A stretch of 61,595 nt of DNA, the filler included, from Candidatus Omnitrophota bacterium (GTDB lineage Bacteria; Omnitrophota; Gorgyraeia; Zapsychrales; JBDRMG01), in NCBI GenBank assembly GCA_043812495.1. It is 5 parts of 5 records of this genome, joined end to end, with 100 filler letters (N's around TTAATTAATTAA, not from the genome) between each part and the next. Parts side by side here need not be neighbours in the genome. Positions count along the whole stretch, not along the records: positions 27,608 to 32,415 come from JBDRMG010000052.1; positions 32,516 to 48,757 come from JBDRMG010000054.1; 3 more parts are not named here. One strand, 5' to 3'. This document shows, in pieces, positions 30,001 to 36,000 of this stretch (its first letter is position 1; every line of letters starts with the position of its first letter). Made by a program: the position numbers.

Positions 30001-33000
30001 CACCATTTTGATGATATCCGAATCCTGCCCCATTAATCTTTCTTGAATAACGCGAAGTTCCGCGAAGGCATCCATGAGCAAAGATTGATCTGAGCAGAAG
30101 CTATGAAATATCTCATGAGCAACGCTTTTTCTTAAATTAGCTTCATCATCGGTGGGTTTGATCGAAATTTTGTCATAGGACTCACCATAATCAATCCTTG
30201 CTTTTGTTCTGCGATAATCCCATATCCGATAGAGATAAGAAATCGCGTTAATAGCCCCCATGGCGAGAAAAACGGTTATCAAGACAAGTATTCCTTCACT
30301 ACAAGCCGTGCAAATCTCTTTTTTGAGAACAAGGACAAAGAAAATCAGATATAATCCTGATATTGCAACTAATATGTCAAACAGCATATCGACATAATGC
30401 CTCAAAGGAGAGGATCTTTGCCAACGAGTCAATAAAATGGGATGCGCGTTTGAAGCGAACTGATCGGCCTTAAAGCGGATTTGTTGTTCTCGGTCTTTTT
30501 TCTTCATCCCGACGCCAAGCCAGTAAGCATAGATACGCCGTACGCTTTTTTCAATTTCATCAGCGATGATTTCAGCCTCGTCCTGGTCGCGGTCAAAGCC
30601 GTTGTTTCGGACAGCTTGGATTCTTTGTTCCTTTGTCATCAGCATGCCCACCACCATAGCAAAGCTAAGAACTGTCGGAAGAATTCCGATTTCTCCAAAT
30701 AATCCGCAGTCCATCCCCAAAAGGCCATTAAATGTGAGTTCTGTCGATCCCTCCTTGTAGCCCTTGAAATCCACCAAAAGCGTCTTGCCATCATCAGACA
30801 CTCTCAAAGGCAAGCCAAAGACATTTAATGTCCTTTGGCCCTGGCAGAAAAGGCCCATATCTTCTTCTGGTAAGTCAGGAAACAATTTTTGCAAAGCAAC
30901 AAGATCAAACTCTCTAAAATAACCAAAATTACAATGCGGGTTTGTAAATTGGTTGATCACCCATATCGCCAAGAGCCCAATAACAAGAATCCCCACTGAT
31001 TCGAGTAATCCTATGTCCATCTGAATCGGCCAACCAAGCACGCCATTTTGCGTGCCGCTTGAGTCGGTTGAATCGTCCGGCACGGATGGGGAGGTGTTGG
31101 TTTTAGGCTTCTCAAGAATAACAATGGACGTCGGCACATAGAACGCAGTCTTACCTTCTAGTTTCATCAACCGTTCAGTTTTGTATACCCTTTGGAAAAC
31201 TTCTTCCAATCTTGATTGAAGTTCTGATGAGAGCCAATCCGTTATTTCTTTATAGCCTCTTTGCAAAATCAATTCTTTAGCGTGAAATGCATCAAAGGCA
31301 TCTAAAATGAGAATTCTGTCGCCTGGCTCCAAGAAATTGTCTAATTTCTCAAAGAATTCATCCAAATCTTTTGTCACAGAATCACGAAAGCCCTTTAATA
31401 AATATGTTTTCCTTGAAGTTGTTATCTGCGATAGCAAATCACCATATCTATCAAAATCAAGGACATCGAAACCGCTACGATAATCCAAAGGATCTGCGAA
31501 ATAATCTTCCACTTCAATTAATATGCACGCGGAGGGCAGATAATCTTCTTTGTTAAGGATAACCGTATTTACATAATGAGCTGGTAAAATATCAATACCT
31601 GCAGCCAGTAATTCCCATACAGCGTTGCTATAGTTGATTAGTCTTTGCAGATGGCCTTCTTGATCTTCCCACTCATCATCTCTTGGCTGCGAAAGCCGCT
31701 CAATTTCTCCAATAAGCTTTTCTGCTGAACCAAGAATATTTCCCCGTCCTAAAATATCTTTCGGATCCAGGGCGAGCTTAATTCTTCGCATTCCCTCAAT
31801 GCCTTCGTCGCCGACCATCAGGCGCAGGTATTCGTGTTTGTTTTTGCCGATACCGTGCTCGGCGGCCGGCGTACCGGTCAAATCAACGGCCCTTTGGACC
31901 AAGATGCTATATACTTTTTTCGCACGCACGTATTCTTTTTCTGTTTTTGGAACAAGATTGATATGGAGTTGAGGAATATGCCCCCAAATGACATAAGGAA
32001 CATTGTGCTCTTGACAGGTCGAAATAGAAAATTCAAGAAATGCGCGCACATGCTCAAAGGGCACAGCCAAGTCGGTACCCATTTTTTCGAATTTCAAACG
32101 GCGATTAACTTCTTCGGGGATTGCGTGACGCATTTCCGTAACAAGTTTCGCCTGTTTGGGGTCCTCGCTTGAATGGGATAGCCAAACAGCTTTGTCCTGC
32201 TCTAATCTGTCCTCGCCGATCAAAGACAATAAGCGCTTAACGGTTTTATGTTCGTATATATCTTCAGTCTCTTCAAAAAATTCCTGTTCAATAAGAATTG
32301 CGCAATTCGCCCAGGCGGGGATGAGCTGGACATATTGATCGCGCACCACATCAAGCGCTGAACCATCCAAATAATCAATGGCGCGGATATTGATGGCTTT
32401 GGCTTTATTTCGCAANNNNNNNNNNNNNNNNNNNNNNNNNNNNNNNNNNNNNNNNNNNNTTAATTAATTAANNNNNNNNNNNNNNNNNNNNNNNNNNNNN
32501 NNNNNNNNNNNNNNNTCTTGAATATTTATTAAATTTGGCGGGATGGTGGGCAAGGAGGGAGTCGAACCCTCACAGCCTTACGGCCACAGGATTTTAAGTC
32601 CTGCGTGTATGCCATTCCACCACTTGCCCAGTGAGCACTAAATTTATGGAGCGATAGCGATCATAAATTTATGTGCGAACTGGGTCCGCCAAAGCTAAAT
32701 ACGTTCTCCTTCGCTAAAGCTTCGGAGAACGGTCTGCGAAGTTTTAACGAAGAAGACCGTAAGTATTTAGCGAAGGCGGACCTCGTACTTTTCGTTTGAT
32801 TCTACTTCGCCCGCCATTGAATCAGTGGCGGGCTTCGTAGAATTAAATTCATGTTTTAATTTATGTTCGTCCCGCCTTCGGCGGGACTCCATAAATTAAA
32901 CATTCATTTAAGGCGTGGACCGGAATCGAACCGGTGAATAATGGTTTTGCCCCTCGCTTTTAGATTTAATACAATTCCATTTAAAGGCGACGACCGGAAT

Positions 33001-36000
33001 CGAACCGGTGAATAATGGTTTTGCAGACCACTGCCTTACCACTTGGCTACGTCGCCAAATTTATTATAAATATTCTCGCTCGGGATGCCGAGCGAAAAGC
33101 GAGGCAAGACCACCGCCTTACCACTTGGCTACCACGCCGTAAAATCTCGCGTCCTTCAACGCGCCCGCCATTAATTTATTGGCAGGCTTGCTCAGGACAC
33201 TTCGCCTCGGCCGAAATACTAAAACACTGAGCGAGGCCCAACATTATGTTGGGCCGAGTCGAAGTGCTACCACGCCAATTTATTTGAAAATCATTTTAAA
33301 GAGCGCATTGTTTCTTTAACGATATCTTCGACTTCGGCCAAATGTCCGATACCTTTTGTGCCGCAAGCGAGTTTTCCTTTAATGGGATCAACAAAGCGAA
33401 TGCCAATTTTTCTAAGTCTTTGAATGTTGTCCTGGACAATTTTGTTTTTATACATTTGGTCGTTCATGGCCGGCGCTATAACGATAGGCGCGCTGGCCGC
33501 CATAGCCACACAGGAAAGCAAGTCATCCGCAAGGCCGTTCGCGATTTTTCCTATCATATTGGCTGTAGCGGGCGCAATCAAAAGAACATCGGCGCTTTGC
33601 GCTAAAGGAATATGGGCTGATTCCCAAGAGTTATGGTCTTGATCAAACATTTCTCTATAAACCTTTGATCCGGTTAGTGTTGCGAATGTTAAAGGCGTCA
33701 CGAATTGCTCGGCTTCTTTTGTCATAATCACGCTCACTTCAATGTTTTTGTCCTGAAGTCGACGAATGATCTCGCAAGCCTTATACGCCGCGATGCCGCC
33801 CGTCACACCCAATATCACTTTTTTTACTTTGACCACTATGTTTTTTCCTTGCCTTTTTCTTTGGTCTTTTCTTTCCCGGCTTCGCGCTGCGTTGCTACTT
33901 CTTTGAGCTCGACTTTGCCTTCTAAAATCTCATCGAGCGCAATGGTTGTGGCTTTATTCGAAGATGGAAAATCAATTAATTTTGGCATACCATCCGCTAT
34001 TTCCGTGGCTCGCTTCGAAGCCAAAAGGACAAGCTTGAAAATACTCATGTTGGCTCTGGGTAATAATTTTTCTATTGGTTGATACGCCATCGACCCTCCC
34101 TTTCAATGAGGCCCGCACTTATGGATCCGCCACGAATTATGGCGGAGAACATAAGTGCAAGGACGAATTGACCCCCGCGCCAATTATGAAATAATTGGTG
34201 TGGGGGATCAAACAAATACAATTATTATATTTCCTTTATCCTATCCTAAAGTTTGTTTTCTATTTTTTAATTTCACGCTCAACAATGGTCTCTAAGCGCT
34301 TAAGGGCGCTCGGCAGATGAGCATTCACGACGACATAATCATAATGCCGCGCCTCTTTCATTTCTTTGCGGGCGACTTTGAGGCGAAGCGCTAGAGTCTT
34401 TTTTGTTTCCGATTTTCTTTTGTTTAGCCGCTTAGCTAATTCTTTCATCGACGGGGCCGTAATGAATATCTTGACGGCATCCGGGAAGCAGCGGCTCACG
34501 GTTTTCGCGCCCTTGACGTCAATGCATAAAAGAACGTTTTTTTTCTTTGCTAATAAATCCCGCACGCCTTTTTTGGGCGTGGCATAATCATGATCAAAAA
34601 CCTTTTCGGATTCGAGAAACCGGCCTTTTTTCTTTTGAACAAAATACTCTTTTTGGCTTATAAATAAATAATCGCGGCCATGGCGTTCGTTTCTTCGTCG
34701 AGGCCGCGTCGTCACAGAAACCGATTTTACCAGTTTTCCTTTCAGGCGTCTAGCGCAAAGTAGTCTTTTGTGTAAGGTTGTCTTACCCGAACCGGAAGGG
34801 CCAGAGAGGATAATGATTTTGCCCTTGCTCATGCTTGATTTAAACTATGGGCGTCACAAGTCATCATTTATTCGATATTTTGCGCCTGCTCACGTAATTT
34901 TTCGATCTCTGTTTTTAAAGCAATAACGGCCTTGGACACGATCCGATCTGGAAGCTTGGAGCCCATCGTGTTGGTTTCGCGCTGCATTTCTTGAGCGATA
35001 AAATCTAACTTCTTCCCTACGGCCCCATCCTGCTGGATCAATCCTTTGAATTCCTCAATATGATGAACTAATCGTGAAATCTCTTCGTTGATATCACTGC
35101 TTTTGAGAAAGGACAGCAATTCGTCTTCTTTCAGAACTTTCTTTCTTGCTTGAGCAATTTCTCTTGCTCTTTTTTGTATCCTTTTTATCTGCAATGACAT
35201 GTGTTTTAGTAGTATTCTTATGTCTTTGCCGAGGCTCTTTCCTTCGCTTGTGCGCATCGTCACAACGCTTTGCAGAGCCTTATGGACTCCTTGCTGGATA
35301 GCCGGCCAAAGTTTCTCGGGTTCCATGGCTGTTTCTTTCAATTCGACAACCCCGGGAAGTTGAATGATTTCGGTTAAAGATAAATTCCCCTTGAGATGAA
35401 GATCGTTTCTGAGTGTCTTGGCCTGGCGAAGATAAGCGCGGGCCGCTTCCTTATTAAAGCCAACCACGCTTTGGGGTTTATCCATGATTTTGAGGGAAAC
35501 GGTCAACCGTCCCCTGGATATCTTTTTTTGTAATATCTCTTTGATTTTGCTTTCGGCAAAAGCAAATCCCGACGGCAGAAAGTAAGCGATGTCCATATAC
35601 CGATGATTGACGCTTCGAATTTCAACGCATCCTTTTGTTTGTCCATAATGAATACTGGCTCGGCCGAAACCGGTCATTCCCTTAATCATGCCCACACCTT
35701 CTTTTTGACGTTGTCCAAAATGGTTTCTTTTGTTGGGTAGAGATCGACGATGATTTCGGACGGCTCAAACCACAGCTTGATCTCTCGCTCTGCTTCTTTC
35801 GCTTCGGATGAAACATGGATCACATTTTCGTAGACACCGCTTGTCTTGATGCGGCCGTATTGCCCGCGGATGCTGATGGATTCGGCCTCTTCGGGATTTG
35901 TTTTTCCCACTAATTGCCGGCATTTATTAATGGCGTCTTCTCCCCAATACACCATGGCCATGACCTTCTTTCTCTCGTGATATTCTCCTGTGATGTATTT

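Follow-up and report, generated by a model that had tools for sequence, protein, structure and literature searches.

In the genome of Candidatus Omnitrophota bacterium (GCA_043812495.1), the working tRNA-Cys gene is carried by a short cassette that has entered an older gene for the same tRNA and split it in two, and this gene-less cassette, a hairpin doublet with a captured tRNA, is in our reading fairly probably mobilised in trans by GIY-YIG nucleases. Positions are those of the window, i.e. the whole analysed stretch of 61,595 nucleotides (filler included), and all features given here lie on the minus strand. The 5′ part of the old gene (33107..33138; 32 nt, acceptor GGCGTGG, last base U33) is followed by the cassette (32951..33106; 156 bp) and by the 3′ part of the old gene (32911..32950; 40 nt). 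The cassette is a head-to-head hairpin doublet, with 10-bp inverted ends that match each other perfectly (left, 33095..33104; right, 32952..32961), a central hairpin (33078..33093) whose core TCCCGAGC is invariant in six of six aligned cassettes, and an intact tRNA-Cys(GCA) in the second loop (32985..33056; acceptor GGCGACG), which is the sole tRNA-Cys called in the assembly. Only 84 nt of the insert lie outside the inner tRNA, and no protein is encoded in the 156 bp. Beyond the old 5′ part there is an extra tRNA-Cys 5′ stub of 11 nt (33276-33266), and then stacked hairpins (the whole at 33139..33276).

The two outer pieces resemble the inner tRNA much more closely than chance would allow (33/33, E 1.7e-12; 25/26, E 6e-6), with five differences, namely two compensatory acceptor pairs and one G>A, so that a single base differs within positions 8-65, as would fit either a local origin or later gene conversion. 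The outer halves rejoin without a duplicated base, and the joined sequence is identical (72/72) to the plain single tRNA-Cys of a sister genome, G001, where the intact gene has the same position behind coaBC; the outer pieces are therefore the older gene. The initial annotation, which had described a working tRNA-Cys inside a split older copy, an insert of about 155 nt with 10-bp inverted ends and a mutually compensating acceptor stem, is borne out in all these respects. The inner tRNA-Cys is identical (72/72) to the intact gene of a genome from another family, G101, the flanks of which do not match the cassette; G101 is thus not supported as a direct donor and was rejected as such.

Homologous inserts at TG|CA in the tRNA-Cys anticodon are present in 9 of the 114 genomes of the order, and both the cassette ends and the insertion site are conserved across families. 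In the relatives the cut is at G34|C35, inside the anticodon, with G just before the insert and A as its last base; in the genome studied here (G000) the junction reads U33|G34, because the left side is one base shorter and the right side has G instead of A, and the corresponding two bases are U and G. The cut just before the anticodon, as first annotated, has accordingly to be moved by one base. The ends of the Cys cassette also interrupt tRNA-Thr(UGU) in G000 and in G018, where the tRNA occupies the other loop (a pattern search for this arrangement gave 2 of 141). Nests elsewhere in the tRNA (after base 26, in the D loop or in the T loop) have ends unrelated to it, so that more than one element, or some broader process, is involved. 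Every cassette read is short, has hairpin doublets at its ends and lacks an integrase remnant. A phylum-wide cassette pattern matched 4 of 401 genomes and missed G000 itself, and thus undercounts; with two genome-wide patterns, 3 of 19 and 2 of 117 loci had a tRNA-Cys (largely nests already known), and the matches were otherwise mostly due to chance.

Insertion has been repeated and is recent. On quick CoaBC trees of 176 columns, the cassette genomes are scattered (8 changes against 8.8 when shuffled; 111 rows), and a single clade of them is rejected (p-AU 0.0096). G017 is plain and its congener G088 (CoaBC 91% identical) has two layers, and G032 has one layer more than G013 (CoaBC 98% identical). 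Such sister pairs, differing by whole layers with conserved ends, uphold the earlier proposal that tRNA genes are repeatedly overwritten by cassettes bringing their own copy. Mapped on the host tree, the GGCGACG acceptor type is unclustered, with 16 changes for 16 rows. In all 13 nests whose outer strands are both readable, the inner acceptor is unlike the outer one, and both single-crossover hybrids would mispair in 10 of them, the other three (L137, L146 and L149) being unlocked on at least one side; as alleles paired at random have unlike acceptors 81% of the time, the 13 out of 13 does not prove a lock.

The Cys nest belongs to a larger locus. The 3′ end of tRNA-Leu(UAA) (32544..32629) runs into contig C50 at window position 16661, and C54 and C50 share an exact overlap of 49 nt; Cys, Leu and Val are thus one locus, with a GIY-YIG gene of 101 aa, UPF0213-like and a candidate agent, between Leu and Val (16242..16547). 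A direct repeat of the tRNA-Leu 3′ end and trailer (first copy, 16661-16591; second copy, 16150..16220, at least 71 nt) brackets this gene, and each copy runs into the hairpin motif. The Val-GAC nest has three layers, with alleles in the order A>B>A: an intact tRNA-Val(GAC) (15734..15809; acceptor GGACCCG), a middle layer made of 25 nt of 5′ part with acceptor GGACTCA (15852..15876) and the 3′ part of the same GGACTCA tRNA-Val (15592..15637), and an outermost GGACCCG tRNA-Val, whose 5′ part is full of hairpins (15913..16089) and whose 3′ part has a hairpin in the T arm (15441..15504). Inverted copies of 18 bp lie in the insert of this outermost layer (15912-15895 and 15553-15536). The matches reported for Val-GAC and for tRNA-Phe were reproduced, but Val has two dead layers instead of one, and the Phe nest is two-sided and not confined to the 5′ side. 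A partial copy lies nearby (E<0.01) at 9 of the 41 tRNA genes found by ARAGORN; adding Leu-UAA (across the contig join) and the intron-bearing Asn restores the 11 loci counted before, out of 41 genes and not 44. Run with introns, ARAGORN gave no intron-containing tRNA at the default score and noise at a lowered one.

As for the agent, the hairpin motif occurs in 51 copies in the genome, against 0-3 in five shuffles, with three free doublets, and nine copies lie within 600 nt of a tRNA, a zone amounting to 2.3% of the genome. Of the 15 small GIY-YIG genes, 11 have a tRNA or tmRNA no more than 600 nt away, and the motif lies within 300 nt of five of the 15, the other 10 being without a motif nearby. 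The GIY-YIG gene two genes downstream of the Cys nest carries the hairpin motif of the cassette nearby. The best solved relatives of the protein at 16242..16547 are UPF0213 proteins, and the NCBIfam search returned no family above cut-off. PF01541 matches have a median of 6 in nest genomes (n=13) and of 3 in the others (n=101), where the counts include UvrC, kin are not independent and some nest genomes have only 3. None of the seven Y1 transposase matches (PF01797) has a motif within 1 kb, nor are they linked to tRNAs. Among the 117 loci of the order and the further loci examined, no Cys nest contains a GIY-YIG gene, so an autonomous form is not in hand; the earlier statement that no agent is identified at these loci needs to be softened, given the candidate gene in the interval between Leu and Val.

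In the mechanism that we favour, two head-to-head copies of the dispersed hairpin motif would have taken up an entire tRNA gene into one of their loops, and the cassette would enter after TG in the anticodon of a resident gene of the same isotype, destroying it; only same-isotype insertions are seen, presumably because cell survival depends on the working copy of the cassette. The likely, candidate agents are GIY-YIG nucleases, small and of a single domain, encoded beside tRNA genes; they would cut the ends and mobilise them in trans, acting on folded single-stranded DNA, and host repair would complete the insertion. The inner tRNA may derive from another lineage, and nests would be most durable where the inner acceptor stem is unlike the outer one, since one crossover between the repeats would leave a mispaired stem.

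Several known systems resemble parts of this picture. In tRNA-dependent lysogeny, a whole phage with a tyrosine integrase breaks the resident tRNA gene, which is not rebuilt, and brings a same-isotype tRNA (Guerrero-Bustamante and Hatfull, 2024; PMC10865867); the Cys cassette works like this in miniature, yet is no member of it, with 156 bp, no gene, no integrase, hairpin-doublet ends and layered nesting. The genes of Ssn nucleases, which are small and encode a single GIY-YIG domain, lie between dispersed hairpin repeats (NTS/SRM); the group is defined by CDD family cd10448 and site-specific cleavage of single-stranded DNA, and a mobile-element origin has been raised for them in a paper whose main text does not contain the word “tRNA” (Chenal et al., 2025; PMC11893778). 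The gene at 16547-16242, though not the cassette itself, shares the small size, the single GIY-YIG domain and the hairpin repeats on either side, but its protein resembles UPF0213 structures. The degenerate SRM pattern of the main text has 7 matches here (4-13 in five shuffles), and no GIY-YIG gene has one within 300 nt. REPINs are dispersed, non-autonomous and extragenic hairpins, each made of a short repeat as an inverted doublet, and are linked to RAYTs (Bertels and Rainey, 2011; PMC3116915); the present doublets are similarly inverted copies of a dispersed repeat, but enter tRNA genes, carry a tRNA and adjoin GIY-YIG genes, and the PF01797 result above leaves no linked RAYT transposase. 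Phage T4 SegB is encoded by a free-standing GIY-YIG gene within a cluster of tRNAs and causes tRNA genes to spread through homing, with double-strand cleavage at a site with a conserved T-loop motif; it is a phage system, and is not known to involve a nested tRNA cassette (PMC2330249).

Classical IS-derived MITEs make a target-site duplication, which is absent here despite the 10-bp terminal inverted repeats. In group I introns a U precedes the 5′ site and a G is terminal, a pattern literally present in G000 and absent in the relatives. The Cys cassette appears to belong neither to Ssn/SRM, nor to REPIN/RAYT, nor to the group I introns, and a literature search, mostly of papers outside subscription, found no description of nested tRNA cassettes.

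Among the other explanations, a local origin without GIY-YIG is unlikely, though less so than the others: the tRNA gene would have been duplicated in tandem, or captured by a different enzyme or through slippage of replication at hairpins, and compensatory change or conversion would have followed. This origin would agree with the near identity of the middle of inner and outer tRNA-Cys, with the lack of a nuclease inside any Cys nest, and with the 5′-only stubs at 16 of the 117 loci of the order, most of which share the acceptor of the intact gene and some of which form tandem arrays. It would, however, require the inner gene to have acquired two compensatory pairs, as the outer one is unchanged from G001; unrelated families share identical ends and site, which are seen again at a second tRNA, and the Y1 transposases are unlinked to motif and tRNAs alike. 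A worn-down prophage or island remnant of tRNA-dependent lysogeny is improbable: the logic of a broken gene complemented by a same-isotype tRNA is shared with the phages described (PMC10865867), but the cassettes are short, with doublet ends and no integrase remnant, the two PF00589 matches of the genome are on other contigs, and a loose pattern found a tRNA in none of at least 118 viral loci listed.

A reading of the insert as a tRNA intron or RNA module of a new kind, in which splicing would join the outer halves into a second tRNA-Cys and set the inner one free, seems very improbable. The whole nest does fold as a cloverleaf within a cloverleaf (z -5.5), and exact removal in G000 would restore a perfect gene with the U and G borders noted above; against this, the insert has no group I catalytic core (Rfam finds only tRNAs) and only 84 nt outside the inner tRNA, the borders in relatives are G and A, and the outer halves are often split by further hairpins or partly missing. 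An artefact of mixed strains with two tRNA-Cys alleles, the caveat of the initial annotation, is hardly credible: the MAG is fragmented, the assembly breaks at the repeat behind tRNA-Leu and no public contig spans the nest, but homologous nests with identical ends occur in independent genomes and metagenome contigs, and the spacers are unique sequence, not allele bubbles. Among sequencing runs, the best DNA run has 0.14 of the query words, and no matching RNA run is listed.

If the favoured reading, a tRNA-bearing hairpin doublet moved in trans by GIY-YIG nucleases, is true, these cassettes would be among the smallest selfish elements that repay their insertion with the gene they destroy, and would offer a route for the turnover of single-copy tRNA genes between lineages. 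The doublet ends and the TG|CA site are concrete candidate substrates for small GIY-YIG proteins, a large and uncharacterised group, and annotation may wrongly take the tRNA fragments of nests for split tRNAs, for introns or for att sites. More tentatively, and as a possibility that we hold for less probable than the mechanism itself, GIY-YIG-moved cassettes may carry tRNA alleles between lineages and invade each other's tRNA (A>B>A), with acceptor mismatches locking the nests and interlayer conversion shuffling the stems; horizontal replacement of essential single-copy tRNA genes would then be routine in the phylum, which would explain the unclustered GGCGACG acceptor type.

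The initial annotation had described an intact tRNA-Cys gene within a split tRNA-Cys gene, an anatomy that was reproduced in the genome under study (G000; a 1.94-Mb assembly, five contigs of which are joined in the window). The halves of the old gene (33107-33138 and 32911-32950) enclose an insert of 156 nt (32951-33106) carrying the working gene (32985-33056), all on the minus strand. The inner and outer tRNA-Cys differ in two compensatory acceptor pairs and one more base, the nest folds as a cloverleaf within a cloverleaf (RNA z -5.5, DNA z -6.4), and an Rfam search of it returned nothing besides tRNAs. 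Since the first 49 nt of contig C54 are the last 49 nt of C50, the true order is coaBC, tRNA-Cys, tRNA-Leu(UAA), a GIY-YIG gene and tRNA-Val(GAC); Cys-Leu-Val is the usual arrangement among relatives too. Homologous loci in named public records are mostly labelled Omnitrophota, and some Planctomycetales.

As to which copy is old, the sole other member of the family (G001) has a single plain tRNA-Cys, located behind coaBC and identical to the outer pieces of G000 at 72/72 positions, despite a CoaBC protein identity of just 60% between the two genomes. The inner gene matches (72/72) the single tRNA-Cys of G101, from a different family; the flanks of the latter are unlike those in G000, and therefore the match shows that the allele is present elsewhere, not who the donor was.

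The order was surveyed at 120 tRNA-Cys region loci, reduced to 117 loci in 114 genomes by removal of three without a tRNA-Cys call; as classified by pattern, remnants surround tRNA-Cys on both sides at 9 loci, on the 5' side only at 16, on the 3' side only at 1, and are absent from 91. A gene-less head-to-head doublet of a hairpin motif with a whole tRNA in one loop, here called the cassette, was assigned by eye to the anticodon in nine genomes (G000, G004, G007, G024, G030, G034, G046, G058 and G088), with further examples in G371, G447 and public genome and metagenome records (identical loci counted once). In the consensus of six aligned copies it starts after TG, has the invariant centre TCCCGAGC and ends in CGAGGG, followed by the CAA of the old gene; no target duplication was found at the insertion. 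Each half is a copy of the hairpin motif, which occurs 51 times in G000 vs 0-3 times in shuffles, and three free doublets are present in G000. The ends of the cassette also break tRNA-Thr(UGU) after TG in G000 and G018, where it is the first loop that carries the tRNA; nests elsewhere in the tRNA, after base 26 (G013, G020, G032) or in the D loop (G097), have ends unrelated to it. In one genus (loci L066, L069, L071, L072, L089, L090 and L091), tandem units of ~70-80 bp, each opening with the tRNA's first 12 nt, lie upstream of tRNA-Cys.

On the CoaBC tree (111 rows; 6 loci left out for too little protein), the nine cassette genomes require 8 changes vs 8.8 with labels shuffled, and a single clade of them is rejected (p-AU 0.0096; quick tree, grouping fixed in advance). 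Taken alone, this tree is also compatible with a single ancient gain followed by many losses, against which argues the undecayed state of the outer halves in G000. Repeated and recent insertion is documented by sister genomes: tRNA-Cys is plain in G017 and shows two layers of nesting in the congeneric G088, of which the outermost has the acceptor type of G017. Two dead layers are common to G013 and G032, and in G032 the older cassette has been inserted again, into a gene still intact in G013; the layers form an A>B>A>B series of alternating alleles, resembling the Val locus of the window.

At that locus, the older tRNA-Val reported to flank tRNA-Val(GAC) is indeed present, as two dead layers rather than one, the outermost with the acceptor of the working gene and the middle with a different one. 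The 5' copy reported for tRNA-Phe likewise stands, and is complemented by a 3' remnant that pairs with it, in a nest with 16-bp inverted arms. Thr-UGU and Arg-UCU are additional two-sided nests with differing acceptors, and Arg-CCU and one Met locus have both-sided remnants with the acceptor unchanged (the Phe, Thr, Arg and Met loci were classified by eye, among 18). Behind the Thr-UGU nest (C57 45156-45800) lies a second whole dead copy of the inner allele, riddled with hairpins. At L006, L012, L014 and L150, the 5' part of tRNA-Leu(UAA) recurs in front of the gene, interrupted by a hairpin insert that these loci share.

The inner and outer acceptors differ in 13/13 nests with both outer strands readable (21 loci examined), and in 10 of these nests the sole tRNA-Cys would be left with one mispair or more after a single crossover, whichever side it fell on. 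Nest loss would therefore be slowed, and we hypothesize that mismatched acceptors may act as a lock. The idea fits the one-sidedness of many same-acceptor stubs; the 13/13 is weakened as support by random allele pairs, which differ in acceptor 81% of the time, and three of the 13 nests are unlocked. Among one-sided loci, L031 has the acceptor of the intact gene, and G004, G013 and G024 have a different one.

The anatomy and history of the nests are real and well supported, whereas the enzyme is what we infer from small GIY-YIG nuclease genes. PF01541 has 16 matches in G000, the highest number among 141 genomes of the order: one 451-aa UvrC-like frame and 15 small genes, 11 of which lie <=600 nt from a gene for tRNA or tmRNA; such zones make up 2.3% of the genome. 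The gene between tRNA-Leu and tRNA-Val (16242-16547, minus strand) has direct-repeat copies of the tRNA-Leu 3' end on both sides, is also bracketed by the cassette's motif, and the nearest solved structures to its protein are UPF0213 proteins. In G000 the motif lies near 5/15 GIY-YIG genes vs 0/7 Y1 transposase matches. Median PF01541 matches are 6 in 13 nest genomes vs 3 in 101 others (p 0.0005; p 0.0017 without G000), in a test that takes in UvrC and related, non-independent genomes. G001, G008 and G068 have a GIY-YIG gene at the matching Leu-Val place and no Cys nest. Against such an agent, no nuclease gene was found within any Cys nest examined, at order or further loci. A role in trans would be plausible by analogy alone, with the small GIY-YIG protein SsnA, which cleaves single-stranded DNA next to the hairpin repeat belonging to it (extracts of PMC11893778). 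A GIY-YIG gene far from tRNAs (C64 52722-53050), by eye the most SsnA-like copy, has short GCGAAGC-loop hairpins on either side, with no match to the published SRM pattern.

Also in the window, a group I intron (25371-25580, Rfam RF00028) with an apparent broken endonuclease frame inside splits tRNA-Asn (25035-25628, plus strand; missed by ARAGORN) after base 35, an intron position known from Patescibacteria. The region 24702-25144 (plus) repeats the 5' end of tRNA-Asn (26 nt) and also contains hairpins and a GIY-YIG frame running into the tRNA itself, and a large serine recombinase frame (Resolvase, Recombinase, Zn ribbon; 25581-27290, minus) has an end crossing the tRNA-Asn 3' exon in antisense. 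A 6S RNA lies at 1598-1750 (minus). ARAGORN found no tRNA-Ile(GAU), Ala(UGC), Glu(UUC), Gln(CUG) or Pro(UGG) in the whole assembly, which is 90% complete, so that missing and disrupted genes both fit.

As far as extracts of the respective sources go, the cassette resembles tRNA-dependent lysogeny in its way of working but has no integrase (PMC10865867), and resembles REPINs in construction but has no RAYT link (PMC3116915); G000 has no match to the SRM of the Ssn system (PMC11893778). The cassette has no group I intron core, and departs in a defining respect from each of the named families. The spread of tRNA genes by a GIY-YIG gene has its precedent in SegB (extracts of PMC2330249). Nested tRNA cassettes of such kind were not found described in the literature searched, and the present analysis contributes a cassette with defined ends and site, used at two tRNA types, together with sister-genome evidence for repeated insertion and alternating alleles.
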